Shown here: in pieces, positions 1,569-47,591 of the stretch
How positions within the stretch are numbered: position 1 is the first letter of the stretch
How the letters are laid out: every line of letters begins with the position of its first letter
IMG/VR virus record: IMGVR_UViG_3300045988_142058
Source of the DNA: a virus
Taxonomy: Duplodnaviria > Heunggongvirae > Uroviricota > Caudoviricetes
DNA length: 47,591 nt
Strand: one strand, 5' to 3'
Position numbers and translations under genes: made by a program
Notes under the pieces: generated by a model
What the model was told of the DNA's origin: nothing
What the model saw: only the letters and a program-made list of their open reading frames with translations
Database searches by the model: none

Positions 1569-2150
1569 TTAGCACTCACCAATTAATCGTACATAAGACA
1601 CAGGCTGGAAAGCACCGACAATACCAACACCACCTGAAACATTGGTTGCTTGCGAAAATGTAAATAGTGTTCTTGCCGACTTTGCACTCTTGATACTTCT
1701 TAACGTATCCTCCAACATCTCTTTCGAAGGAACAGCACCATGAAAAGAGTTAATCGAAGCAACAATTGAGGCTGTATATGGTTCGCCAGGTGGTGATGTT
1801 TCAAACCATTCTGTTATGTTTACCTCTCCACCCAAGCTATTTACTACATCTTCAACCGCTGCCCTTGTACCCTTTATTCGCTTTGTTCGTATTATTGATT
1901 TAAAAACAGAACGCTTTAACGATACAGGCCAACTATCCCTCCATGTATCAGCATTCCATTGCCAAGCTAAATGATCGAGAACAACTGAGTCCAGGTTATC
2001 AACAACGCTATATATTTCTGTCTTATATATTAAATTGTTAATTGCTTGTAGTTCATCATCGATAGCTTTCGACATAGCTATCACGTTCGGATCTCTAGCT
2101 AAGTTAGGAGGTAAAACATCCAACAAGCTAACATTAAAGATATCAGCCAT
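1569..2150 (-). CDS. Tail/baseplate protein, P2 gpI-like
   Basis: 193 aa; sits between baseplate J-like gene and tail fibre, the P2/Mu gpI position; 8-nt overlap with upstream gene. Confidence 0.5.
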   Translation of the reverse strand: MADIFNVSLLDVLPPNLARDPNVIAMSKAIDDELQAINNLIYKTEIYSVVDNLDSVVLDHLAWQWNADTWRDSWPVSLKRSVFKSIIRTKRIKGTRAAVEDVVNSLGGEVNITEWFETSPPGEPYTASIVASINSFHGAVPSKEMLEDTLRSIKSAKSARTLFTFSQATNVSGGVGIVGAFQPVSYVRLIGEC

Positions 2151-3267
2151 CCTCTAACCCCGCATACTGGCAATTTATATTTCTCTCTCTGGCGACCTGC
2201 GTCTCTCCAACCACAGTAAATACAGGACTTGATATTTCTAATCTTTTAGCCCCAGCATTTTTTAAACGTTGAATAATTTCATCTGGATTTATATCTCTTC
2301 CCATAACCGAACGTTGCCATTGTTTATACTCATCAATAGCTTTCTCAACCTCACTTTGAATTAATGTTGTTCTGTTTTTGTCCGATGAGTTAATCCAGTA
2401 TTTAATTATTATATCGTATTCAATGCTCTCTGGTTTCTTAACAAGAACTTTATCTGTGAATGGTCGAATATTAGTTGCAGAGAGAACGCTATTTATCTGC
2501 TCCAATAGTTCATCAGAAGGTATATCTCCGTTCTCTAACAAAGAACGGATTTCTACAGTTCCGGGCGATGGTGTATATACATTCACATCTTTTATATTCT
2601 GATTGGCTGTTCTTGTCCAATATTTATAAGAATCCTCCGGCCCTGCTGTAGACAGTTTTTCCGGCGACAGTTTTATTCTTTCAGCATAATTATCATCTGA
2701 CTCTGTATCAGCACCAGAATTAGATGTTGTTAGATTCCTTACGCTAGAAACATACGGCAACGGAGTCACCAACTCATTTATTTGCCCTGGTAAAAAGCCA
2801 TTCCCCGATAAACCAGGTATAACAGCATATCCTGAGACTGTACCAACTGTTTTCCCAGCAGGTATTTCCAACAAAACATCTGTTTGGAAAATAACACCAT
2901 TTCCAGTTGAAACTTGAGTGCCAGAAGGTATTGTATATATCCCCGATAATTTTGTTGACAGATTAAACTCAAATGTAGTCAAGGCAGATTGAGCTTCCAG
3001 CCTAGGCGTATCCGTCAGATAGCCTATATGGTCGAGATATTCACCTTCACCATATGTAAGAAGGTTTTGTTTTGCAGAAAAATCGATAGCTTTTCTTTGC
3101 TGTATAATAATCTCACACAATGATAAGATGAATAATCTACGTGGATCAGCAGGTGCTAATGTTTCACCTGTTATACTCTCAAAAGCTCTGATTGAACGAG
3201 TTGTTATATCAGTCGGGTTAGAATCTGCGAAAGTAATATCTGGCAAACCACCACGCGGCAACGTCAT
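2143..3267 (-). CDS. Baseplate J-like protein
   Basis: 374 aa; size and position downstream of gpW-like gene match baseplate J family. Confidence 0.65.
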   Translation of the reverse strand: MTLPRGGLPDITFADSNPTDITTRSIRAFESITGETLAPADPRRLFILSLCEIIIQQRKAIDFSAKQNLLTYGEGEYLDHIGYLTDTPRLEAQSALTTFEFNLSTKLSGIYTIPSGTQVSTGNGVIFQTDVLLEIPAGKTVGTVSGYAVIPGLSGNGFLPGQINELVTPLPYVSSVRNLTTSNSGADTESDDNYAERIKLSPEKLSTAGPEDSYKYWTRTANQNIKDVNVYTPSPGTVEIRSLLENGDIPSDELLEQINSVLSATNIRPFTDKVLVKKPESIEYDIIIKYWINSSDKNRTTLIQSEVEKAIDEYKQWQRSVMGRDINPDEIIQRLKNAGAKRLEISSPVFTVVGETQVARERNINCQYAGLEDG

Positions 3268-11399: not shown

Positions 11400-11885
11400 T
11401 TAGATAAACTCCTGAGACTGAATATTCTGAGGCTTTAATACTAGCCACGTTCCAGTTGCTTCCGTTATCCAATATGGATACGGTTGATCATCAAACATTC
11501 GCCATCTGATATCGCCCTGAAAAAGAAATTTCTCTTCAAGTAAAGGCCTCTCCTGAAAATGAAACATCATCCTTTCAAGAAGAGCCATTACCCATTCATA
11601 TCCAGTATGGTCCTCACAAAAACCACCTAGAAGAAACTTAACCTTAACTTCATCCGTTTCAGGCTGCATTCCTCCTTCCGTGGGCCTGATAATCACATGA
11701 GGAAATTCTGGCGGTTTATCTGGAGATGGTTGTGATTTAGGAGGCAAGTACCCTTTAAATATTGTTGGAACAAACAATTTAATATCGCTGTCTGTTTCAT
11801 CATAAGGAGGTCCCTGCACTAATAAATCATGGAAAACCTCATGTTCCAACCGATTTTTTATTGCATCTATCAAAAGATTAATCAA
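11400..11885 (-). CDS. Hypothetical head-tail completion protein
   Basis: 161 aa between capsid and tail modules. Confidence 0.35.
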   Translation of the reverse strand: MINLLIDAIKNRLEHEVFHDLLVQGPPYDETDSDIKLFVPTIFKGYLPPKSQPSPDKPPEFPHVIIRPTEGGMQPETDEVKVKFLLGGFCEDHTGYEWVMALLERMMFHFQERPLLEEKFLFQGDIRWRMFDDQPYPYWITEATGTWLVLKPQNIQSQEFI

Positions 11886-12226
11886 ATCGGCATTCCTCTG
11901 TTAGTATTAACAGTGAGAGTTATTTCCAATACACCAACATTATCTGATACTTCATCAACAATATAATTTTTACCGTTGATTTTCATTGACTGGTCTTTGA
12001 CTGGGAGAACAGGAAAATCTTTTCTTGAAACAAATAATATTATTTGCCCCTGATTTATTCCCTCTGCAAACTCAGCATATGAGCGTTTATTCCGCTCATG
12101 AATAAGGTCTGTATCAATAACGGCAAGGATATCCTTGCCGTCTATGTTATATGTATCGGCAAACTCTTTTTCATTGAGGAATATTGCAGAAATATCTTGC
12201 GCTATAACCTCTTTGAAGGAGTTCAT
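11882..12226 (-). CDS. Hypothetical head-tail connector protein
   Basis: 114 aa; position equivalent to lambda FII region. Confidence 0.35.
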   Translation of the reverse strand: MNSFKEVIAQDISAIFLNEKEFADTYNIDGKDILAVIDTDLIHERNKRSYAEFAEGINQGQIILFVSRKDFPVLPVKDQSMKINGKNYIVDEVSDNVGVLEITLTVNTNRGMPI

Positions 12227-12618: not shown

Positions 12619-13662
12619 TTAAACCACCTTAGCCACCAGATAGGCATCAGCCACACCTGGATTAGGCAGTGGAGATGACTTCATGGCAACATAACGGCCA
12701 GCCGGCTTACGAGTTACCCAGGTGTCTGGAACTCGCGGTGACTCAACAATCGTTAGAGTCTTTTCGGCGTCATCTACAAGCTCTACAGCACCATACAGCA
12801 TCGTTCCTCGACCAGGAGAGCCAAAGAGGATCTTATCTTCCGGTACTAATGGTTCTGGTTTTCCTGTTTTATCATTGCGAATAAGTTCGTCGTAACCATA
12901 AAAATCGACACCTTCAAGATTGCCATAATGAGTTACGCCTTCTTCTAACTCCTTAGGCTCAATATACCCAAGCTCTTTTCGGCGATTCTCAAGATATTTA
13001 GTTACTGCTTCATTTTTAACGAAGGCATCAACAACTTTTGCGCCCATTACGGCAACACGAGGTGTAAAACCTGAAGTTAGTGATACCCGACGTCTCCAGT
13101 TGCGAACATTAACCAACGGATCTGATTTTGCTGCACTCCATAAATCATCACCTGTCAGTTCAAGATATGGTTTATCTCCTTCCTCTTCAGGCCAAAAATA
13201 AACTGTGTCATCCACTCCTTCACCAACAATATCAACCTGCCCCGTAAACAAGACTTGTGCACACATCCATTCTTCACGGCGGTTAACCATTTCATCAAGC
13301 TCAAGCAAATCTTTACCTAATTGCTCGGCGGCTCGTTCTGCTGGCGATTTTGCGTTGTAAATATTCTCACCCGGAAGCCTGTTTAAAAGCAGCTCGGCTG
13401 TTGTTACCAAATCAGGTGCAACAAGTGGTGGCTCCAGAGTTCTCGTTACAAAGCCGCGTCGCTCAACGGTTTTTGAGCCAAAACCTTTACCAACAAACGG
13501 AGCCATAGTACGGCCACCGCGAACAAAATCCAGATCAACTTTCTTTGTATTAAAGGTCTGAACACCAGGAAAAAAGGTACGAAGAAGAAAACGACGAGCC
13601 TTGAAATTCTGAATAACAGGCTCAAGCATTGTACGTCGTTCAAAAATATCAATATTCGGCAT
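12619..13662 (-). CDS. Major capsid protein, lambda gpE-like
   Basis: 347 aa; N-terminal FxxxRFLLRTFFPGVQTF pattern resembles gpE family; follows decoration-like gene. Confidence 0.7.
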   Translation of the reverse strand: MPNIDIFERRTMLEPVIQNFKARRFLLRTFFPGVQTFNTKKVDLDFVRGGRTMAPFVGKGFGSKTVERRGFVTRTLEPPLVAPDLVTTAELLLNRLPGENIYNAKSPAERAAEQLGKDLLELDEMVNRREEWMCAQVLFTGQVDIVGEGVDDTVYFWPEEEGDKPYLELTGDDLWSAAKSDPLVNVRNWRRRVSLTSGFTPRVAVMGAKVVDAFVKNEAVTKYLENRRKELGYIEPKELEEGVTHYGNLEGVDFYGYDELIRNDKTGKPEPLVPEDKILFGSPGRGTMLYGAVELVDDAEKTLTIVESPRVPDTWVTRKPAGRYVAMKSSPLPNPGVADAYLVAKVV

Positions 13663-24855: not shown

Positions 24856-25121
24856 TCATCATCTCCTGCCGCACATACAACCTCACAAAAAACATCAGCG
24901 GAATGTTTCTCCTTGAACGAATGACGCTCAAAACCGCACTCAATATCAGGCGCAAAAACATCCACCACATACGGTCTTTCAGAATGTTTGTTTTCCCAAC
25001 GATAAACCGTAGTGACGTTGAAATGTTTTAACGCTTCACGGAACTCAACGCTGCCCGTCAGGTTTTTTGAGGTCAGGTATTGCAGGAGGTTTTTTACTAC
25101 TTCACGGTCTTGTACTTTCAT
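24852..25121 (-). CDS. Hypothetical protein, first gene behind cassette copy 1
   Basis: 89 aa; ATG at 25121 preceded by cassette GGAG RBS. Confidence 0.45.
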   Translation of the reverse strand: MKVQDREVVKNLLQYLTSKNLTGSVEFREALKHFNVTTVYRWENKHSERPYVVDVFAPDIECGFERHSFKEKHSADVFCEVVCAAGDDE

Positions 25122-25230
25122 CGGGTTATCTCCGGTTTAACCAGGGCGGGTATCGCTCGGTTTCGGGTATAACCATAGGAAATTTTTTCCCACCTGTAAA
25201 GCACTTTTTATATAAATCTATAATTATATA
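25122..25230 (-). promoter_or_regulatory. Promoter-leader cassette copy 1
   Basis: ~109 bp near-identical to copies at 32043..32150 and 40979..41087; putative -35 TTTACA (25195..25200), -10 TATGGT (25172..25177), leader with GGAG RBS. Confidence 0.6.
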
Positions 25231-25233
25231 ATT

Positions 25234-25821
25234 CTATGACACTTGCCAGAGAGCATCATGCAACTGGATACCTCCATTGCACTGGTTGCCCCAGCCATGC
25301 CAGCCATCAGGTAAATCACCGCGAGCAAACAGCTCAATACGAGGAACATCGCCTAACAGCTTTACCAGCTTGTCACGGACCACATCAGGCTTCCGAGAAT
25401 GCTCCAGACGAGGCGATGTAAACGACTGAATGATTCCCGCATCAAGACGTGTCGGTAGTTTGCCTTTCACTGCAAACAAGCAATCTTCACTGTTTGCACG
25501 AGTCATATGCCCCATCCCCATCACCAGCTTATCTGGTTGTCGGCTACCACATTTGTTCCATGTGAAGCCCTTCATGGTCATCAGCCTGAATCCCCATGCT
25601 TTCACCACCAGCAACGCTTCTTCTGGCTGAGTCGGAACCCACCACATGGCCAACAAACACGATTCAGGATTAGCAAGCTGCCAGACAGGAATACGAGCAA
25701 TATCCTCAGCTTTCATCGTTGGATACTTAAAACCAGCGCCACGATTCCCATCCTTACACTTGTCTTTGTATTCCCAGGGGGGATCTGCATAAATCAGATT
25801 AAACAATGCAATTGCCTCCAT
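25234..25821 (-). CDS. MT-A70 family N6-adenine DNA methyltransferase
   Basis: 195 aa; DPPW motif (LIYADPPWEY). Confidence 0.8.
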   Translation of the reverse strand: MEAIALFNLIYADPPWEYKDKCKDGNRGAGFKYPTMKAEDIARIPVWQLANPESCLLAMWWVPTQPEEALLVVKAWGFRLMTMKGFTWNKCGSRQPDKLVMGMGHMTRANSEDCLFAVKGKLPTRLDAGIIQSFTSPRLEHSRKPDVVRDKLVKLLGDVPRIELFARGDLPDGWHGWGNQCNGGIQLHDALWQVS

Positions 25822-26129
25822 GTTAGTTGTGTCTCCGGCGCTTATCTCCGGCAGTCATAACGCTGGCCAGCTCTACAGCAAACACAACGAAAAGGGCACT
25901 AACCAGACTGATTAATGCCCTTGCCTGTTGTGTGCCGGATATCGCCCGACAACGCTGTTTTGGTAACACGGCTACAGTTCCGTGCCGCTCCAGCTTTTAC
26001 CCCTTTGCGGATAACAGGCCCTGCCTGTAACTTAGCCCCACGTTCGCCCGAAATGCGCACCAGGCACGCATAAAGATGAGCACGAAGGAAGTAACTCCAC
26101 CGCGCTTATCTTTATGTGTGAGAGTGAAT

Positions 26130-26205
26130 TGGTGGCCCCTACCGGATTTGAACCGATGACCGTGCGATTATGAGTCGCCTGCTCTAACCACTGAGCTAAG
26201 GGGCC
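26130..26205 (-). tRNA. tRNA with CAU anticodon, tRNA-Ile2 (lysidine)-like, CCA encoded
   Basis: 76 nt cloverleaf GGCCCCUUAGCUCAGUGGUUAGAGCAGGCGACUCAUAAUCGC...GGUUCAAAUCCGGUAGGGGCCACCA; 7-bp acceptor stem; resembles E. coli ileX from memory; elongator Met not excluded. Confidence 0.8.
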
Positions 26206-26374
26206 ATATTTGATCTGTTTGTCTGGTGTGGCGCCGCGCACGAAAATCCCAGCCAATAAATTCAGGATTTTTGGGCGCGGCGGCATATCAGACAAACATG
26301 GTTGATGCGTGCGCTAATGAGAAAAGCGCATAGAATGTTGTAACTATATATTTATATAATTATAGAAATATATA

Positions 26375-26584
26375 TTACTTTGGACAGTTGATTTCCCATG
26401 CCCTGTTATGAGCCAGAATATCTTTCTTTGTCTGGCGGTCCATAACATCGATATCGTGATCAGTCAGGTAGATGGGCTTTACCCAATCACAGGCGGTATC
26501 AACCACCACCGGGACGCTTCCACGACTCCCGCAGCTCGCGATCAACATCGTCATCAGCCATATGGTTAACACTCTGCTGTACAT
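26375..26584 (-). CDS. Outer-membrane spanin Rz1-like lipoprotein
   Basis: 69 aa; lipobox-like LIASC; overlaps 3' end of Rz-like gene in another frame. Confidence 0.55.
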   Translation of the reverse strand: MYSRVLTIWLMTMLIASCGSRGSVPVVVDTACDWVKPIYLTDHDIDVMDRQTKKDILAHNRAWEINCPK

Positions 26585-26777
26585 TGCCCACCTCTTTTGT
26601 CACTTCTATACGCCGCTCCGCAGTGGCTTTTACGGCGGCTGCATTCTCATTAATGCGCTGCTTTTCAGCTTCATCTTCGGCCTTTTCTCGCCCCTTCATA
26701 CGACCAAAACCAAACGCGCCGAATGCAACCAATATAATTGTGCCAATAAATGACAAAACGGCCTTCAAACCAGTCAT
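26499..26777 (-). CDS. Inner-membrane spanin Rz-like
   Basis: 92 aa; N-terminal TM, charged coiled-coil; follows endolysin. Confidence 0.6.
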   Translation of the reverse strand: MTGLKAVLSFIGTIILVAFGAFGFGRMKGREKAEDEAEKQRINENAAAVKATAERRIEVTKEVGNVQQSVNHMADDDVDRELRESWKRPGGG

Positions 26778-27316
26778 ACCACCACTCGCTCTTTCATCCA
26801 GCCGTAGACAAACGACTCATTCGCCTCGCGCTTCTCCGCCAACTCCAGATAGCGTTCGCCCTGCGTACAGTTCAGCGACGTCAGCATCACCCGTTCGCCG
26901 TCTTTTCCCCGATTCCCAAGATAAGCACGCAGCGCATTAATGGTACGTGGACCGATTCGTCCGTCTGCATCCAAATCGGGATACAGCTTCCCGCGCAGGT
27001 TGAACACATTCAGCCAGCGTTGAAGCATTTTTGACGCCACTGTTGGCCCCATGTTCACCCCCGTGTCACACAGCTCTGCAGCAATATCAGAGGATAATGC
27101 GGCCACCTGATCAAAGCGTGGTCCGTACCAGTAATCAGCCTCAAGGATTTCCAGTGCCTGTTCGCGAGTTAAATCGCGCATATCGCCACGGTATCCATGA
27201 GCACGGGCAGTGTTCTGAGTAATGCCCCACTTTGTTGGGCCTCCCTTGTCGTCAGGGTGATCAACATAACCGCCCTCTTTCCCAAGAATGCTGTTAAAAA
27301 TCTCATCTTTGGTCAT
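26774..27316 (-). CDS. Endolysin, GH108-like with peptidoglycan-binding domain
   Basis: 180 aa; ILGKEGGYVDHPDDKGGPTKWGIT motif; C-terminal DGRIGPRTINAL. Confidence 0.8.
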   Translation of the reverse strand: MTKDEIFNSILGKEGGYVDHPDDKGGPTKWGITQNTARAHGYRGDMRDLTREQALEILEADYWYGPRFDQVAALSSDIAAELCDTGVNMGPTVASKMLQRWLNVFNLRGKLYPDLDADGRIGPRTINALRAYLGNRGKDGERVMLTSLNCTQGERYLELAEKREANESFVYGWMKERVVV

Positions 27317-27635
27317 GATTAAACCCTAATGCGTCAACTATCCGCGCCAGATTGCCCCTGAAATACAGAACAACGATGCAGATAATCAGATTTCCAATAA
27401 CCACCAGCCAGTGGGATTCTTGATAAAGACCGAACACATAACGGAAGGGAACATTGGCGTATACAATGACGTAGATATAAGCCAGAAAGGAAACAAATGG
27501 ACGATGCCTGGAGTCTTTCCGTCGATAAAGCATCAGCGCCATTACTATTACTGTGCAAAGCACCGCATTAATCAGTGCTGACGGGTCACTGCTTACCATT
27601 TGAACCCCCTCCACGTAAGCGGGAAAGCATTCCAA
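27303..27635 (-). CDS. Membrane protein, holin/antiholin-like
   Basis: 110 aa, multiple hydrophobic segments; start uncertain. Confidence 0.4.
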   Translation of the reverse strand: MECFPAYVEGVQMVSSDPSALINAVLCTVIVMALMLYRRKDSRHRPFVSFLAYIYVIVYANVPFRYVFGLYQESHWLVVIGNLIICIVVLYFRGNLARIVDALGFNHDQR

Positions 27636-27981
27636 AGATGCTACCGAGATCCTGGCTGTTTACGAACGTGAGGATTTTAATGGTCAATGCAGCCACAATA
27701 ACCGCACCAAGCGCATCCAGAGGACGATCGTTGTAGCTGGTCCATTTGGCAAGAAATGAGCCAACTAACGGCGCTCCAATCACTCCAACAATGAACGATG
27801 TAAAGAAATAGCCAATCAGCTTGAGACGGCTAATATTCACCGCTGTAGCAACATAGAAAACAGCGCCAGCAAATGCCCCGAATACAACGCCGTAATCAAT
27901 ACCAGTTGCAATACCAAAAACGCTGGCACCCATCAGGCCACCAGCAGCAACGGCCGTACCGGAAATTGGTTCTGCTGACAT
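27586..27981 (-). CDS. Putative holin
   Basis: 131 aa, 3-4 predicted TM segments, upstream of endolysin. Confidence 0.55.
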   Translation of the reverse strand: MSAEPISGTAVAAGGLMGASVFGIATGIDYGVVFGAFAGAVFYVATAVNISRLKLIGYFFTSFIVGVIGAPLVGSFLAKWTSYNDRPLDALGAVIVAALTIKILTFVNSQDLGSIFGMLSRLRGGGSNGKQ

Positions 27982-28171
27982 TGAAATCCTCGTTAAAAAA
28001 AAAGCCCCGCCGAAAAAGGCAGGGCTTCATAAAGCAACAAATTACGCGGTAATCGCTTAACGCAGTTTTACTACGTTAAATGAAACACTACACCCAGTTA
28101 CCACCTAAAACAAGGTTTCCCCATAAAAAAACCTTCATATCGTGGTTAATCGATCAATAAAAAAGCAATGT

Positions 28172-30897: not shown

Positions 30898-30943
30898 TGT
30901 CGAGGCGTCCTTATACATTTATATAAATATATAATTCTATATA

Positions 30944-30974: not shown

Positions 30975-32042
30975 TCAGGCTTTCAATAGCGATTCTTTCA
31001 GATATCGGGCATCAGCCAGGGCATTTGGAGTAATCTTGCGAACCCATGCATTACGGGTTGGACTCCACTTAAAGGCGCGTGATTTAAGCAGCGAACGAAT
31101 GTTTGCCTCTGGTTTGCCAGGGAAATAAAACAGGATGCGGTTATCCTCTGGATCTATCTCCATAGAAAAGTCGTCGTATTCTTCGCGCTGTGCTCCTGTT
31201 ACAGACTTGACCGATTCAAGCTCCTTAATACGGCTCTGTAGTCGTTTGATCTCGGCGTTATTGTTGCTCAGTGCGTATGAAGGGAATCCGATGCGCCCAC
31301 AGAAATCTCCGGCCAGTAACTCTTTGGCTTCGCTTTCTGTAAACCTGAGATCGATTAATGCAGAAAGCTGCTGTAATTGGTCTTTTTTGTATTTGCGAAT
31401 GGCCTTATTTGCGGCCTTCATTTTGACGTGTGACTTCATGCAGCCTTGCAGCTTACGAAGCAACTTAAATAGCGCATCAGGATCATCAGACGAAATTCCA
31501 TTACGACCAACACCTGCGGCTTTGCTCTCGTAGTGTGATGCTTTACTTTCGCATTCAACAAACGCTTTTCTGAATAACGCATCAGCTTTAGACAAACGGC
31601 GGCGATGGCCTTTCGCGCTATAATGGTCAACTAAAATCGGCTGGCCTAACGGGATCACATCCAACAGGTCATGCGCTCGCTTATGCGCTACCGCACCTTC
31701 TTTTCTGGCTTTTTCTGCACGAGCAATATATCGGGCAAGACGCGCGTTCTGGCGTTCCTGATAGGTGTTTACGTAATCATCTCCGCGCTGCTGCTGTTCA
31801 AGCCATGCTTTACGCAGATCTTCTGTTACGTCCACCAGCTCCGCAGGGATACAACCAGTTTGGGCTTCATAAGAGTAACCATCCTCATAGATACGCCCAT
31901 CGTCTTCAACAAAGAAAAAGGTTTCGTGCTCATCGCTTTTGACCATACGACCATTAACATGGCGTAATAGGTAGCCAGTATCAGTGCTTAACAGGCTGTT
32001 AGGGTTGTTGATCCAGTCAGAAATAATTACTTGTTTATTCAT
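30975..32042 (-). CDS. DUF3560-like protein, first gene behind cassette copy 2
   Basis: 355 aa; start at cassette RBS; family call from memory only. Confidence 0.4.
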   Translation of the reverse strand: MNKQVIISDWINNPNSLLSTDTGYLLRHVNGRMVKSDEHETFFFVEDDGRIYEDGYSYEAQTGCIPAELVDVTEDLRKAWLEQQQRGDDYVNTYQERQNARLARYIARAEKARKEGAVAHKRAHDLLDVIPLGQPILVDHYSAKGHRRRLSKADALFRKAFVECESKASHYESKAAGVGRNGISSDDPDALFKLLRKLQGCMKSHVKMKAANKAIRKYKKDQLQQLSALIDLRFTESEAKELLAGDFCGRIGFPSYALSNNNAEIKRLQSRIKELESVKSVTGAQREEYDDFSMEIDPEDNRILFYFPGKPEANIRSLLKSRAFKWSPTRNAWVRKITPNALADARYLKESLLKA

Positions 32043-32150
32043 CAGATTTCTCCGGTTTAACCAGGGCGGGTATCGCTCGGTTTCGGGTATAACCTTAGGA
32101 AATTTTTTCCCACCTGTAAAGCACTTTTTATATAAATCTATAATTATATA
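32043..32150 (-). promoter_or_regulatory. Promoter-leader cassette copy 2
   Basis: Differs from copy 1 at -10 (TAAGGT) and in ~8 nt next to ATG; lies between Q-like gene and lysis-containing operon. Confidence 0.6.
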
Positions 32151-32211
32151 TTTATAGATTTTCGATGTTCCCGATGTCTACACACCATCAAAACAGCTCA
32201 AAATGACACTT

Positions 32212-35864: not shown

Positions 35865-35884
35865 AAGCGGGCTAACGCCCGCTT
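35865..35884 (+). terminator. Hairpin terminator after gene 35486..35860
   Basis: 8-bp stem AAGCGGGC/GCCCGCTT, loop TAAC, then AU-rich sequence. Confidence 0.4.
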
Positions 35885-36010
35885 ATATGATTATAGTTTT
35901 ATATAATTATATAAAACGCTTTTCATCCGCCAAAAAGTTGGTTATGCTTACCTCGTTCTATAAATATAGATTTATAGAATTATATAACCAAACACATGGA
36001 GTCTCGACAA

Positions 36011-36664: not shown

Positions 36665-36707
36665 TATATAATTATAGTTTTATAGATTTATATAAGAGGG
36701 TATACAC

Positions 36708-37178: not shown

Positions 37179-37200
37179 AAAAAAGGCCCCCGAAGGGGCC
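37179..37200 (-). terminator. Intrinsic terminator for small-peptide transcript
   Basis: GGCCCC-cgaa-GGGGCC followed on minus RNA by UUUUUU; 7 nt after peptide stop. Confidence 0.6.
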
Positions 37201-37206
37201 TAATCG

Positions 37207-37329
37207 CTACTTGCTGCTAATGTTTATCGTCACATTCAGAGCGTTATCAGTAATCTTCCAACCCTCCCCATGTGGCGTAAACAAAGCTCCAGTAACAACG
37301 ATAAAAATACACATACAGTATTTTTTCAT
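37207..37329 (-). CDS. Small hydrophobic peptide (40 aa), candidate type I toxin
   Basis: MKKYCMCIFIVVTGALFTPHGEGW...; AAGGG RBS; intrinsic terminator immediately after stop; upstream leader carries 15-nt antisense target. Confidence 0.4.
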   Translation of the reverse strand: MKKYCMCIFIVVTGALFTPHGEGWKITDNALNVTINISSK

Positions 37330-37622
37330 TGTATGGCCCTTACAGGCCGTTTCACGGCATCCCCACCGACGAAAACAACGCGAGAGCAAGCACGGCTGCT
37401 TGTGCTTGCATGTACGGCAACAGGAAATCCTCCCCTAAAGTCGGTGCCCGGGTGCGAATCGGCGGGAAGGTCCACAGGTATTTTACGATTATTTTAAGAT
37501 TAGTAATAGGAAAGAAATTAAACGAAAAAAACAGTTTATTTTCACAAAATCAGTAACCTACCCACAATCTGTGAGTTTGCTGACACAACAAGAACCACAA
37601 TTTTTTGATGTATAATAGTGGA

Positions 37623-37787: not shown

Positions 37788-37900
37788 TGTCTCTGTTAAA
37801 ATCCCGCCGTATTGACATGAATGCGCCATTGGTGGACACTTTCCGAGCCGTAGCAAAATCTACGGTCGGGATTAGCCTCCTGAATAACACGATGGCGCAT

Positions 37901-37921
37901 ACCGCGTTAGCGGTTTTTTTA
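37901..37921 (+). terminator. Second intrinsic terminator in antirepressor leader
   Basis: ACCGC-gtta-GCGGT followed by TTTTTTT. Confidence 0.45.
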
Positions 37922-38082
37922 TGCGTAGAGCACTGTTACGCCCAAATTATGGTGGGTCGTACAGGGGCGGAGAAATCCGCGCCGGTTCGTCATTGTGTCC
38001 GGTAAGGCTAACCCTGTACGGCTCACCACCATTTGATTAGCCTCGAATGGCGGTGATAGTTCCATATACTGGAGATATCACA

Positions 38083-38274
38083 ATGACAAACCTACCCCAT
38101 GACTATTACGTCAACCTCGTAAAGATCCTTCTCAAGAAAGCCTCATACGCCGATAAATTCCGCCTGGCTGAAATCATCGAGCGCGAAGCTATGCGCATCG
38201 CCAGCAACGATAACGCTGTTTCTGACGCAAAAATCTCCCTCGTAACCAAAGTAGTTATGGGAGGTGCAAAATGA
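38083..38274 (+). CDS. Hypothetical small protein upstream of antirepressor
   Basis: 63 aa, GGAGA RBS, stop overlaps antirepressor ATG. Confidence 0.4.
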   Translation: MTNLPHDYYVNLVKILLKKASYADKFRLAEIIEREAMRIASNDNAVSDAKISLVTKVVMGGAK

Positions 38275-39452
38275 AAACGCTTCCGACCGTTAACACCCTA
38301 CAGCCTATCCTGCATAACCAGCTCCCCGTTATCACTACTGAACTACTGGCGCAATTGTATGGAACCGAGCGCCAACGTCTGACAAACAATTTCAATAGAA
38401 ACAAGGAACGTTTTATAGAAGGTAAACACTTTTTTAGGATAGAAGGTAAAGAGTTACGAGAGTTGAAGAACAAAAACTCTTTAAGAGTTCCTGTGAGAGT
38501 AGTTAACGAACCATCTTTAAGAGGGTTACAAATTCCCCCGAAAGTTCGCTCCCTCATCCTCTGGACAGAACGCGGGGCTGCACGTCACGCCAAAATGCTT
38601 GAAACTAACCAAGCGTGGGATGTGTTCGAACGGCTGGAAGACTGCTATTTCAACCAGAACGCACAAACGGCCGCGACCGTTACCGTCTCGCCAAGCAATG
38701 CTCGTGAGGTTGTCGATACGCTCAACGCCAAACCGATGTTTTACATTAAGGTGTGCAATAACGAGCCACTCACAACCTCAGCCGATGTTGCCCAGGCATT
38801 CAGCACCACAAACAATTCCATCGTTATGGCCATCGATGCGTTACGCATTCCTCGCACAGCTGCGGCGCGTCATTTCTTTAAAGAGCAACGACCGTTGGAA
38901 GGAAGCGACCGCGAAATAACAATCTATCGCATGACAAAAGACGGATTTACCTTGCTCATGGAGAGCATCGACGGTCCAAGCGTGAAAGATATCAAGCTGG
39001 CCTACATTGAAGCCTTTAACGCTATCAGCAGCGTGTTAAAAACACAGTACGAGCGTGATCTGGCTAAACGACTGTACCAAGAAAAAACGATTATCCGCGC
39101 GGCAACAGAGCATAATCGGCTATTAACGGAACCGAACTACAGGAAGGAACTAATCAAGGAGTTTGACAAGGCAACAGGGAAAACCAAAGCGGCGCTAAAT
39201 CTGCCAGCAATGACTCAGGAAAATGTGATATCAGCCTTACTTCTTGATCTGCTCAGAAACGCCAGAGCACTTATCAGCTTTGACGAAAACCTGAATCCTC
39301 AGCTCAAGCTACTACCACCGACAGGCAAAGTAGTCGACCAAGCTGATCACAACAGCATACTCAGCGTACTGGATGCAAACCTGCCAGCCAAGACACTACA
39401 GGATCTGATAAAAACATGTGCTGATAAGCTGGCACAGAAAAGCAGACCATAA
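38271..39452 (+). CDS. Antirepressor (ORF6N/ANT N-terminus, Rha-like C-terminus)
   Basis: 393 aa; N-terminal LPVITTELLAQLYGTERQRLTNNFNRNKERF; terminator after stop. Confidence 0.75.
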   Translation: MKTLPTVNTLQPILHNQLPVITTELLAQLYGTERQRLTNNFNRNKERFIEGKHFFRIEGKELRELKNKNSLRVPVRVVNEPSLRGLQIPPKVRSLILWTERGAARHAKMLETNQAWDVFERLEDCYFNQNAQTAATVTVSPSNAREVVDTLNAKPMFYIKVCNNEPLTTSADVAQAFSTTNNSIVMAIDALRIPRTAAARHFFKEQRPLEGSDREITIYRMTKDGFTLLMESIDGPSVKDIKLAYIEAFNAISSVLKTQYERDLAKRLYQEKTIIRAATEHNRLLTEPNYRKELIKEFDKATGKTKAALNLPAMTQENVISALLLDLLRNARALISFDENLNPQLKLLPPTGKVVDQADHNSILSVLDANLPAKTLQDLIKTCADKLAQKSRP

Positions 39453-40597: not shown

Positions 40598-40978
40598 TTA
40601 CTTAACGAGGAATAAAAATGGTTTATTGTTCGGCGGTGTAATCGGGGCTGGCTCGCTTTTGCTCATGCGATCAGTGTACCAAGCCAACTCCTTGTCAAAG
40701 TAAGCCTGATTAAAATAGGCCATGAATGTAGTTTCAAATCCATAACGACCGCTAATACGCAGCATCTGATTGCCGTTCTCTGTTTCCAGATATACCTGGG
40801 CACGTTCCTGATTCTCCTTCAGCCAGGTTAAAGCCTCATCGCATGAGGACACACGATACTCATCATCGTAGCCGTCATCGATGCGGCTTGAGGAAGAACG
40901 GCAAATCACGCCAACAGAACCAGCCAGGATAGTTTGAATTTTAAGGAAAGCGTTTTTGCGGATTTTAATCATGCTCAT
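40598..40978 (-). CDS. Hypothetical protein, first gene behind cassette copy 3
   Basis: 126 aa; ATG at 40978 preceded by cassette RBS. Confidence 0.45.
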   Translation of the reverse strand: MSMIKIRKNAFLKIQTILAGSVGVICRSSSSRIDDGYDDEYRVSSCDEALTWLKENQERAQVYLETENGNQMLRISGRYGFETTFMAYFNQAYFDKELAWYTDRMSKSEPAPITPPNNKPFLFLVK

Positions 40979-41087
40979 CGGGTTATCTCCGGTTTAACCA
41001 GGGCGGGTATCGCTCGGTTTCGGGTATAACCTTAGGAAATTTTTTCCCACCTGTAAAGCACTTTTTATATAAATCTATAATTATATA
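40979..41087 (-). promoter_or_regulatory. Promoter-leader cassette copy 3
   Basis: One substitution relative to copy 1; heads operon 40598..40978 plus HTH gene. Confidence 0.6.
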
Positions 41088-41245
41088 AATAATAGTAACT
41101 GGTGTTTTTTTAGGCGAAGCATTAAACATTTTTGTTTAGCTTATTGGCAAGGTCTTGAAAAAGACATTTCAGCAATGCTATACCATTGAACATGGTATCG
41201 GCTGAATTTTGTAATTAACACATTTTAAACAATTTGAGGTGCCAA

Positions 41246-46668: not shown

Positions 46669-47591
46669 TAAATAACCTCAGCCATTTGTTGGTCTGTTAA
46701 TGCTTTATGCCATATTCTGAAATTCCTGATATGACCAAATAGATGACGTGCCCCTGATGTGGTTTGACCTCCTATTCTAATAAAGGTCCGCGTTTTTACG
46801 CCCGTCCATTCCGTTTCAATGGTTTTAGTAGCCTCACCGTTAGAAACTACTCGTTTAGTACCGTCAGAATAAATATTAAAACCACCAATGAATTTTCGAA
46901 CATCCGTTCGACCAGTAAACAAACTAGAAACGTAACTACTTGTCGACGCTTTATAAGTTTGCATATAAAGCTGACCGTAATATCTCTCGGTTGTGTTAAA
47001 AGCGTATGTGATTGACTCAATAGGCGGCACACCAGAAAAATCAAAAATACGCGGTGCTACATTAGGGGGAATATCGCCCCAATTCCTGTTAACCTCGACC
47101 AAACAAGTAAGCGGTCTGTTATAAATGTTGTTTTCGGTCGGGATCGTAACCATATCACTCGCACGAGTCGCCGCCGTCGTTCCTGATATAATAAAAGATG
47201 ATACACAAGGCCCATTTTCTACTTGTGGGGTGGCCAGATAAATATAGTCACCAGATACGGTTGCCCCGCCCTGCTTAGGAGAATACTGTATCTGAGAACC
47301 TATTTTTAACTCCCCATCAATTGCCTGAATTGTTGCCTCAGCAAAAATCCATCCTGTAGTTTCATCCTTCCTGACTCGTGCCGTAATTCTACCGGAAGCA
47401 CCACCTGTCATATTAATTTCAAGCGTTTGTGTATCAATATACGCATCACCAAGAAAAGTTGTTGCGCTACCGTCATACTTATCAAACCGTATACGTAACC
47501 TTACCTGTCGTTCTGTTTTAAAACGGCATGAGGTTGTCACGTACTTGTTATCGCCTGAGACATCAACTGACTTTGTTGCAGCAATTGATGC
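46668..47591 (-). CDS. Tail fibre protein, C-terminal portion (same gene as 1..1517)
   Basis: Same reading frame as 1..1517 across the 62-bp junction; complete gene ~2379 nt (~792 aa). Confidence 0.7.
   Translation of the reverse strand, partial: ASIAATKSVDVSGDNKYVTTSCRFKTERQVRLRIRFDKYDGSATTFLGDAYIDTQTLEINMTGGASGRITARVRKDETTGWIFAEATIQAIDGELKIGSQIQYSPKQGGATVSGDYIYLATPQVENGPCVSSFIISGTTAATRASDMVTIPTENNIYNRPLTCLVEVNRNWGDIPPNVAPRIFDFSGVPPIESITYAFNTTERYYGQLYMQTYKASTSSYVSSLFTGRTDVRKFIGGFNIYSDGTKRVVSNGEATKTIETEWTGVKTRTFIRIGGQTTSGARHLFGHIRNFRIWHKALTDQQMAEVI
47530..47591. repeat. 62-bp terminal redundancy identical to 1..62 (circular closure)
   Basis: Exact identity of the two window ends. Confidence 0.95.

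Follow-up and report, generated by a model that had tools for sequence, protein, structure and literature searches.

What does a phage gain from a single tRNA gene with a CAU anticodon, and is the product a methionine or an isoleucine tRNA? We addressed both questions for a 47,591-nt stretch of viral DNA (hereafter the window), in which ARAGORN detects exactly one tRNA, a minus-strand gene at 26130-26205 whose CAT anticodon it places at position 34. A sequence-only reading had described this gene as a clean 76-nt cloverleaf with an encoded CCA, resembling tRNA-Ile2 rather than tRNA-Met. Its position, length and CCA end were all recovered, and the strand, left unstated in that reading, is minus: the RNA, GGCCCCUUAGCUCAGUGGUUAGAGCAGGCGACUCAUAAUCGCACGGUCAUCGGUUCAAAUCCGGUAGGGGCCACCA, is 76 nt long with the CCA encoded, and the Rfam tRNA model (RF00005) scores 67.0 bits against a gathering score of 29 (E 1.6e-12, whole window), spanning 26133-26205 (-) over the full length of the model (1-71/71). 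The cloverleaf is complete, with acceptor strands GGCCCCU / AGGGGCC, and "clean" holds for its 20 standard pairs, though not for the one non-standard pair, a G27/A43 mismatch at the top of the anticodon stem, where host ileX has a G.U wobble. Across an Ile2 cloverleaf alignment of 11 distinct sequences, 97.8% of cells are paired and 7 pairs are changed on both sides, a number reached by 0 of 500 shuffles. The window tRNA is a real, intact tRNA gene.

Several other candidate features at the locus were discarded. An 87-aa ORF overlapping the tRNA (26032-26295, minus strand) was taken to be spurious, as PGAP annotation places no CDS there. Rfam searches of the flanks under permissive settings returned only sub-threshold matches of a chance type, namely miRNA models on the upstream hairpin I1 and a plastid model on the strand opposite the tRNA, together with a rydB match that was rejected at 24.8 bits against a threshold of 50. 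The 521-nt intergenic region folds with z = -8.4; the long-range pairing predicted around the tRNA in this fold is without comparative support and was set aside.

Comparison with the tRNAs of E. coli K-12 placed the gene with tRNA-Ile2. It matches ileX at 68/76 positions (89.5%) and ileY at 66/76, as against 57/77 (74%) for the elongator genes metT/metU and 47/77 (61%) for the initiator metZ. The acceptor and anticodon stems had been read as ileX-like, and positions 1-42 and 66-76 are indeed identical to ileX, taking in the acceptor stem, the D-arm with its loop, positions 27-42 and the discriminator-CCA. The eight differences fall at positions 43, 44, 49, 50, 51, 59, 63 and 65; those in the T-stem all preserve pairing, with 49-65 changed from G-C to A-U and 51-63 from U-A to C-G on both sides, and 50-64 from C-G to U.G.

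The known identity elements give the same answer. E. coli TilS needs C4-G69 and C5-G68, and the U4-A69 and A5-U68 pairs of tRNA-Met are antideterminants (PMC2500205, PMC1635315) as well as MetRS determinants (PMC2500205, PMC1635315, PMC9976931). Both TilS determinants, which the sequence-only reading had singled out for inspection, are present in the window tRNA, and the two Met pairs carried by metT/metU are absent. TmcA, which acetylates C34 of tRNA-Met, requires C27-G43, C30-G40 and G44 (PMC2500205); metT/metU have these elements for ac4C34 formation (PMC2500205, PMC9976931), whereas the window tRNA has G27/A43, G30-C40 and C44. The IleRS identity elements A73, C4-G69, U12-A23, C29-G41, A35, U36, A37 and A38 (Table 1 of PMC9976931) are all found. 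Initiator tRNA-fMet is marked by a C1xA72 mismatch, A11-U24 and three G-C pairs at 29-31/39-41 (GGG/CCC) (PMC1635315), marks that are absent from the window tRNA, which has G1-C72, C11-G24 and C29-G30-A31.

An elongator tRNA-Met, reading AUG and charged by MetRS, is what the gene has been called elsewhere. The anticodon itself and the anticodon loop, CUCAUAA, are those of metT/metU, ARAGORN returns tRNA-Met, and the GenBank records of Yersinia phages vB_YpM_39/41/44 and of several P1-like phages label the same or a near-identical gene tRNA-Met. The ARAGORN label is an anticodon read-out only, because the program assigns isotype from the anticodon alone. RefSeq (PGAP), on the other side, labels 100%-identical copies tRNA-Ile, and tRNA-Ile is also the label on all 40 E. 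coli matches sampled across the similarity ranking. PGAP tRNA calls are made with tRNAscan-SE. Version 2.0 of tRNAscan-SE includes an Ile2 isotype model (PMC8450103). Any molecules escaping modification should accept methionine, since a tRNA in which unmodified C takes the place of L34 gains methionine-accepting activity (PMC9976931). Given the poorer metT match, the Ile-type pairs at 4-69 and 5-68, the missing acetylation elements and the PGAP calls, a methionine identity for the gene appears highly improbable. The evidence supports tRNA-Ile2 of the ileX kind, rather than tRNA-Met.

We then characterised the element that carries the gene. Bases 1-62 of the window are repeated at 47530-47591, and the genome is therefore circular, with 47,529 bp. 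Circular plasmids of 46-51 kb that are 97-99% identical to the window are numerous in E. coli, E. albertii, E. fergusonii and K. aerogenes, and three "Yersinia phages" isolated as plaques, vB_YpM_39/41/44, are close to it as well. One family member, NZ_CP009073.1, resides in E. coli ATCC 25922. Of 5,426 complete E. coli genomes, 67 contain 80% or more of the 2.5-kb stretch that surrounds the tRNA; an exact-match search with the 45 nt at its 3' end gave 0 matches in a collection with one genome per species, a result that is uninformative on distribution. PGAP annotates the 98.5%-identical plasmid pDETEC34 with the head, tail and lysis genes of a contractile-tail phage, and with RepA, ParA and a RelE/ParE toxin-antitoxin pair, while Pfam searches of the window ORFs revealed an IncFII-type RepA, ParA, tail-fibre genes and an ORF6N/Rha antirepressor. 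An integrase was found neither among the PGAP-annotated genes of pDETEC34 nor among the window-specific ORFs scanned with Pfam. With head, tail and lysis genes alongside RepA and ParA, and with integrase absent, the element is therefore a phage-plasmid: a myovirus-type phage-plasmid of Escherichia of approximately 47.5 kb, with a GC content of 44.2% in the window. Naming the family after the pSLy3/SSU5 phage-plasmid group was an option that we rejected, since that group is SSU5-related, and we found no published name for this family in the literature.

The features surrounding the tRNA are collected in Table 1. All neighbours named there share the minus strand with the tRNA, and upstream and downstream are read on that strand. 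The proposed location between a lysis cassette and an MT-A70 methyltransferase gene was borne out, with holin, endolysin and spanin ORFs upstream and MT-A70 downstream.

Table 1 Features of the tRNA locus, in order along the minus strand, with the evidence for each.
Feature	Position	Strand	Evidence
Strong terminator-like hairpin with T-run, ~20 nt before the first holin ATG	28028-28001	-	Pattern scan
Lysis cassette, upstream of the tRNA	26375..27981	-	Pfam and translations
Holin	27586-27981	-	Pfam (Phage_holin_8 / Phage_holin_3_7 in the two holins)
Second holin	27303-27635	-	Pfam
GH108 endolysin	26774-27316	-	Pfam Glyco_hydro_108 and PG_binding_3
i-spanin-like ORF	26499-26777	-	TM segment and LIASC lipobox seen in the i-/o-spanin-like translations
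o-spanin-like lipoprotein ORF with LIASC lipobox, overlapping the i-spanin-like ORF, unannotated	26375-26584	-	Translation
AT-rich repeated motif, candidate operator/promoter element, between o-spanin stop and I1	26336..26381	-	Repeat families D2/D3
Hairpin I1, 34-nt arms, 83 nt, 10 nt 5' of the tRNA	26216..26298	-	Repeat search
Variable cargo slot, 152 nt, tRNA and I2	26058..26209	-	blastn boundaries against two Salmonella relatives
tRNA-Ile2 gene, CAU anticodon, encoded CCA, 76 nt	26130..26205	-	ARAGORN, Rfam, ileX 68/76, RefSeq labels, covariation
Anticodon CAT (tRNA positions 34-36); C34 is the predicted TilS lysidine site	26170..26172	-	Sequence and ARAGORN
Imperfect hairpin I2, 25-nt arms, directly 3' of the tRNA	26065..26120	-	Repeat search
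Weak terminator-like hairpin with weak T-run, between tRNA and MT-A70 (putative)	25892..25922	-	Pattern scan
MT-A70 methyltransferase gene, downstream of the tRNA	25234..25821	-	Pfam PF05063, E 4e-23; PGAP annotation of pDETEC34

A promoter scan found no sigma-70-like promoter upstream of the tRNA, and no convincing -35/-10 pair could be picked out by eye in the AT-rich stretch. It is plausible that the tRNA is carried on the transcript of the lysis cassette, the "late transcript" of the sequence-only reading. The AT-rich motif recurs at approximately 7 intergenic sites (repeat families D2/D3), aligns with the D1 promoter cassettes and is kept in Salmonella relatives of the element. Hairpin I1 has 0/83 variable columns across nine family members and, compared with the Salmonella versions, 4 compensatory pairs of 33; it is a backbone element and not specific to the tRNA. 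The region that contains hairpin I2 (26058-26129), with 17/72 variable columns, is the most variable segment in the family. A further ~170 nt of conserved non-coding sequence lies 3' of I2.

The boundaries of the tRNA segment are set by two plasmids of this phage type from Salmonella, NZ_CP044178.1 and CP053324.1. Their alignment with the window runs to 26210/26213 and resumes at 26057, and both carry approximately 370 nt of unrelated sequence in between; no tRNA was found anywhere in the record or fetched region of these two relatives. Since the same slot is filled by unrelated sequence in them, the tRNA together with I2 (26058-26209) is therefore exchangeable cargo, and the AT-rich motif and I1 belong to the backbone.

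Where this cargo came from was investigated by comparison with other phage and chromosomal tRNAs. The closest sequences outside the family of the window are the trnI genes of P1, P7, D6 and P1-like plasmids, which match at 72/76 positions and are nearer than host ileX. The nearest relative is thus P1 trnI, and not host ileX, with which the sequence-only reading had compared the gene. Relative to ileX, the window tRNA and the trnI genes of P1, P7 and D6 have in common the derived bases A43, C44, A49-U65 and C51-G63, and all of these genes reside on E. coli phage-plasmids. P1 trnI, recorded as "tRNA-ile2 (CAT)" and 89% identical to ileX, differs from the window tRNA at four bases: U6, U26, C50 and G59 in P1, against C6, A26, U50 and A59 in the window. 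The contexts are unlike. In P1, trnI belongs to the C1-controlled tciA-tciB-tciC-trnI-ban operon and the phage also has trnA (Asn) and trnT (Thr), whereas the window has a single tRNA between the o-spanin ORF of the lysis cassette and MT-A70, and homology between the window and P1/D6 extends no more than 5 nt beyond the tRNA on either side. An IMG/VR contig carries an Ile2 variant only two bases away from the window tRNA, within a cluster of Arg-TCT, Thr-TGT, Ser-TGA and Ile2 genes that resembles the tRNA cluster of D6.

Two other genes help to place the window tRNA. Host ileX and ileY share with it the TilS and IleRS determinants, yet they are chromosomal, whereas the window tRNA lies on a plasmid prophage and differs at A43, C44, three T-stem pairs and position 59 of the T-loop. 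The ileZ gene of Stx-phage 933W is likewise a tRNA-Ile(CAT) gene that follows a terminator in the late region of a temperate phage of E. coli; it has a non-Watson-Crick 27-43 pair, as do all three phage versions (window, P1 and 933W), and its usual interpretation is the supply of a rare-codon tRNA. In contrast to the window tRNA, ileZ has an ileX/ileY-type T-arm and its own G20, G26, A27, C43 and A44, stands alongside two tRNA-Arg genes (ileZ-argN-argO) with an annotated putative promoter pT, and lies upstream of the stx2 toxin and lysis genes, where the window tRNA is downstream of the lysis genes. Taken together, the shared derived bases make it most likely that the window tRNA descends from the P1/P7/D6 trnI lineage of phage-plasmids.

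We next considered the demand for AUA decoding. ATA codons had been described as frequent in the AT-rich tail genes, and this proved correct: the tail module of pDETEC34 uses 22.3 ATA per 1000 codons (33% of Ile codons), and individual baseplate and head-tail genes reach 36-61 per 1000. Over all PGAP CDS of this plasmid there are 204 ATA codons (15.7 per 1000, 25% of Ile), and a greedy ORF set of the window holds 244 (16.8 per 1000, 27% of Ile). The corresponding figure in a 50-kb sample of K-12 is 2.7 per 1000 (4% of Ile; odds ratio for pDETEC34 against the sample 6.0, p 1.6e-30), a sample that understates host ATA use because it includes ribosomal-protein operons. Genome-wide ATA use in K-12 is roughly 4-5 per 1000 codons.

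Three observations qualify how much the tRNA would contribute. The Salmonella relative without it uses 12.7 ATA per 1000 over all CDS (21% of Ile) and 16.3 per 1000 in its tail module (24% of Ile); because such tRNA-less relatives still use ATA at this density, the tRNA is dispensable for the phage type and its benefit may be small. ATA is nearly absent from the most abundant virion proteins (0/347 codons in the major capsid, 1/173 in the tube), and this avoidance suggests that AUA is costly even with the tRNA. AGA, AGG, ACA and GGA are likewise raised 2- to 8-fold with no matching tRNA in the element, and since they are enriched about as much as ATA, the ATA richness reflects general AT drift and not a special adaptation. 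The tRNA is helpful at best, and not required. The ATA content of the Salmonella relative is somewhat below that of the window family, and it is still ATA-rich.

Very probably, to judge from its sequence and relatives, this gene is accessory cargo of P1/P7/D6 trnI origin whose product, a functional minor tRNA for isoleucine (tRNA-Ile2), supplies AUA decoding to the phage-plasmid. Host RNase P and 3' processing enzymes would trim the transcript, in which the CCA is already encoded. Host TilS would then recognise C4-G69, C5-G68 and the CAU loop and form lysidine at C34, switching the tRNA from a MetRS substrate that reads AUG to an IleRS substrate that reads only AUA; for the phage tRNA these steps are extrapolated from the biochemistry of ileX/ileY (PMC2500205, PMC9976931). 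Any unmodified fraction would be expected to act as a harmless tRNA-Met (PMC1635315). With the extra gene copy there would be more tRNA for AUA, a codon rarely used by the host itself, and the added supply may help to translate the ~200-240 ATA codons of the element, which occur at 4-6 times the host density and most densely in baseplate and tail genes.

One alternative is a tRNA that is intact and yet near-neutral, hitch-hiking from a P1-like phage-plasmid with no measurable benefit. It accords with the swap-in/swap-out nature of the slot, with the similar ATA use of the Salmonella relatives that lack the gene, with P1 homology confined to the tRNA and its immediate edges, and with abundant virion proteins that avoid ATA anyway. 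Conservation argues the other way. Across nine family members the tRNA varies at 2/76 columns, C13U, which gives U13.G22, and A59G in the T-loop, and both variants are structure-neutral. The non-coding flanks vary at 42/308 columns, 17/72 in the 3' flank with I2 and 25/236 in the next non-coding segment (Fisher p 0.004 for 2/76 against 42/308, with sites that are not independent because much of the flank variation clusters in single sequences). The gene has also been retained by dozens of plasmids across the four host species (E. coli, E. albertii, E. fergusonii and K. aerogenes) and by the plaque-forming Yersinia phages. This conservation is weak evidence against neutrality because the family is young (97-99% identity); on balance, we regard a near-neutral passenger as unlikely.

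A more elaborate possibility is that the tRNA acts as a translational timer. Made only from an antiterminated lysis/late transcript, it would gate the ATA-rich baseplate and tail genes that lie downstream (22-61 ATA per 1000) and spare the ATA-free major capsid, with the invariant 83-nt hairpin and the AT-rich operator-like motif controlling its release; in a related reading, the changes of the P1 lineage (G27/A43, C44 and the T-arm) would tune escape from a host control that acts on ileX/ileY. We hold this scenario to be quite unlikely.

Phage tRNAs have been proposed or shown, for other isoacceptors, to counter host defences (PMC10264068, PMC11555353), and the window tRNA might in the same way replace host tRNA-Ile2 destroyed by an anticodon nuclease or another tRNA-depleting defence. 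The derived changes at 43/44 and in the T-arm, common to the window family, P1 and D6 and absent from the host, could be read in this light. Loop mutations are, however, the hallmark of nuclease evasion (PMC10264068). Such mutations are absent here, because positions 27-42, comprising the 5' strand of the anticodon stem, the entire loop and all but one of the five bases of the 3' strand, are identical to host ileX. To our knowledge, no defence nuclease targets tRNA-Ile2, and codon demand alone accounts for the presence of the tRNA, making a counter-defence role very unlikely.

A role as attachment site, either as an attP recombining with host ileX/ileY or as a complementing tRNA in tRNA-dependent lysogeny, has precedents in the many IMG/VR prophage contigs that end at ileX/ileY-type host tRNAs and in mycobacteriophages (PMC10865867), but is effectively refuted for a plasmid prophage with IncFII-type RepA and ParA that lacks an integrase in the annotations described above, whose relatives found are all 46-51 kb plasmids or phage genomes, and whose tRNA gene is full length with a 3' half that differs from the host at 8 positions.

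All of these alternatives, tRNA-Met included, are weaker than the supply of AUA decoding. The kind of gene is already known: RefSeq labels this exact gene tRNA-Ile, and P1 trnI and 933W ileZ are annotated as tRNA-Ile. As an ordinary and already catalogued kind of phage tRNA, it carries little conceptual weight, and the new points are modest, namely the link to the P1 lineage, a polymorphism for presence or absence of the tRNA with defined boundaries, and the persistent tRNA-Met mislabel. The last has consequences beyond this locus, as anticodon-only callers mislabel the gene as tRNA-Met in GenBank phage records (among them the three Yersinia isolates of this family and several P1-like phages), which distorts surveys of codon compensation. 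The derived bases held in common point to an exchange of tRNA cargo between two unrelated phage-plasmid families that cohabit E. coli. Finally, the tRNA and the unrelated 370-nt segment, alternating on one backbone, offer a natural with/without comparison for the value of a rare-codon tRNA to a temperate phage.

The boundaries of the intergenic cargo slot that houses the tRNA-Ile2 gene are the same in all relatives. In the E. coli family the slot holds the tRNA and the imperfect hairpin directly 3' of it (I2), while the Salmonella plasmids NZ_CP044178.1 and CP053324.1 (loci L130 and L135) share one common, unrelated segment of ~370 nt that carries neither a tRNA nor a convincing ORF, and in L130 has no Rfam match. 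On the 5' side of the tRNA, the 83-nt hairpin shows zero variation across nine family members and is also kept in the tRNA-less Salmonella relatives, with compensatory changes at 4 of 33 pairs. As no T-run follows it on either strand, it is not a canonical terminator. It may serve as an attenuator, as a site of processing or as a palindrome to which a protein binds. Further downstream, directly before the MT-A70 start codon, a weak rydB-like Rfam match (about 25 bits, where the threshold is 50) was seen in both the window and a Salmonella relative; this is probably chance or simply a conserved leader.

The same or a near-identical tRNA-Ile2 gene is labelled tRNA-Met in many GenBank phage records (OR545053-OR545055, FO818745, MH160767, ON018986 and OP279344, among others), and tRNA-Ile in RefSeq plasmid records. 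The tRNA-Met label is a systematic annotation error by anticodon-only callers. Regarding the use of ATA, this codon is absent from the 347 codons of the major capsid gene, versus 61 per 1000 in the neighbouring head-tail gene and 48 per 1000 in the baseplate J gene, and its avoidance is therefore sharply expression-linked within a single operon.

Features of the window and of two Salmonella loci (L130, L135)
Feature	Position (strand)	Details
Cargo slot	26058-26209; L130 3384-3752; L135 about 2163-2534	intergenic
83-nt hairpin	26216-26298	34-nt arms; 10 nt upstream of tRNA
rydB-like match	25824-25883 (-); L130 3111-3174 (-)	
Major capsid gene	12619-13662 (-)	
Head-tail gene	11882-12226 (-)	
Baseplate J gene	2143-3267 (-)	
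69-aa ORF	26375-26584 (-)	lipoprotein signal (LIASC); overlaps 3' end of i-spanin-like gene
Intrinsic-terminator-like hairpin	28001-28028 (-)	strong; 11 pairs, then nine-T run
ryfA	37179-37475 (-)	Rfam, 143 bits
isrK	37847-37920 (+)	Rfam, 66 bits
C4 antisense RNA	37945-38033 (+)	Rfam, 71 bits
ORF6N/Rha antirepressor gene	38271-39452 (+)	
AT-rich sites (TATAATTATAGATTTATATAA)	25208-25237, 26336-26381, 30911-30940, 32128-32157, 35883-35985, 36665-36706, 41065-41094	
114-nt direct repeat	25118-25231, 32038-32151, 40975-41088	three copies, 91-99% identical

Within the lysis cassette, the 69-aa ORF is probably the o-spanin; its counterpart in a near-identical plasmid has no PGAP annotation. The terminator-like hairpin precedes the start codon of the first holin gene by only ~20 nt, which suggests that expression of the lysis genes requires read-through or antitermination.

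Positions 1-62 of the window are repeated exactly at 47530-47591, and the window is therefore a circular genome, complete at 47,529 bp, plus an assembly overlap. The ryfA, isrK and C4 antisense RNA matches adjoin the antirepressor gene on its upstream side, an arrangement similar to the immI module (c4-icd-ant) of P1/P7, though this phage-plasmid is non-P1. AT-rich sites of the type TATAATTATAGATTTATATAA are located in intergenic regions, and in three copies the site is adjoined by a sigma-70-like promoter (TTTACA-17-TATGGT). Each copy of the 114-nt repeat comprises an AT-rich site, promoter-like sequence, a 5' leader and an ATG, which starts a different downstream minus-strand gene in each case. 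By comparison with the C1 operators of P1, the AT-rich sites look like dispersed operators of one putative master repressor.
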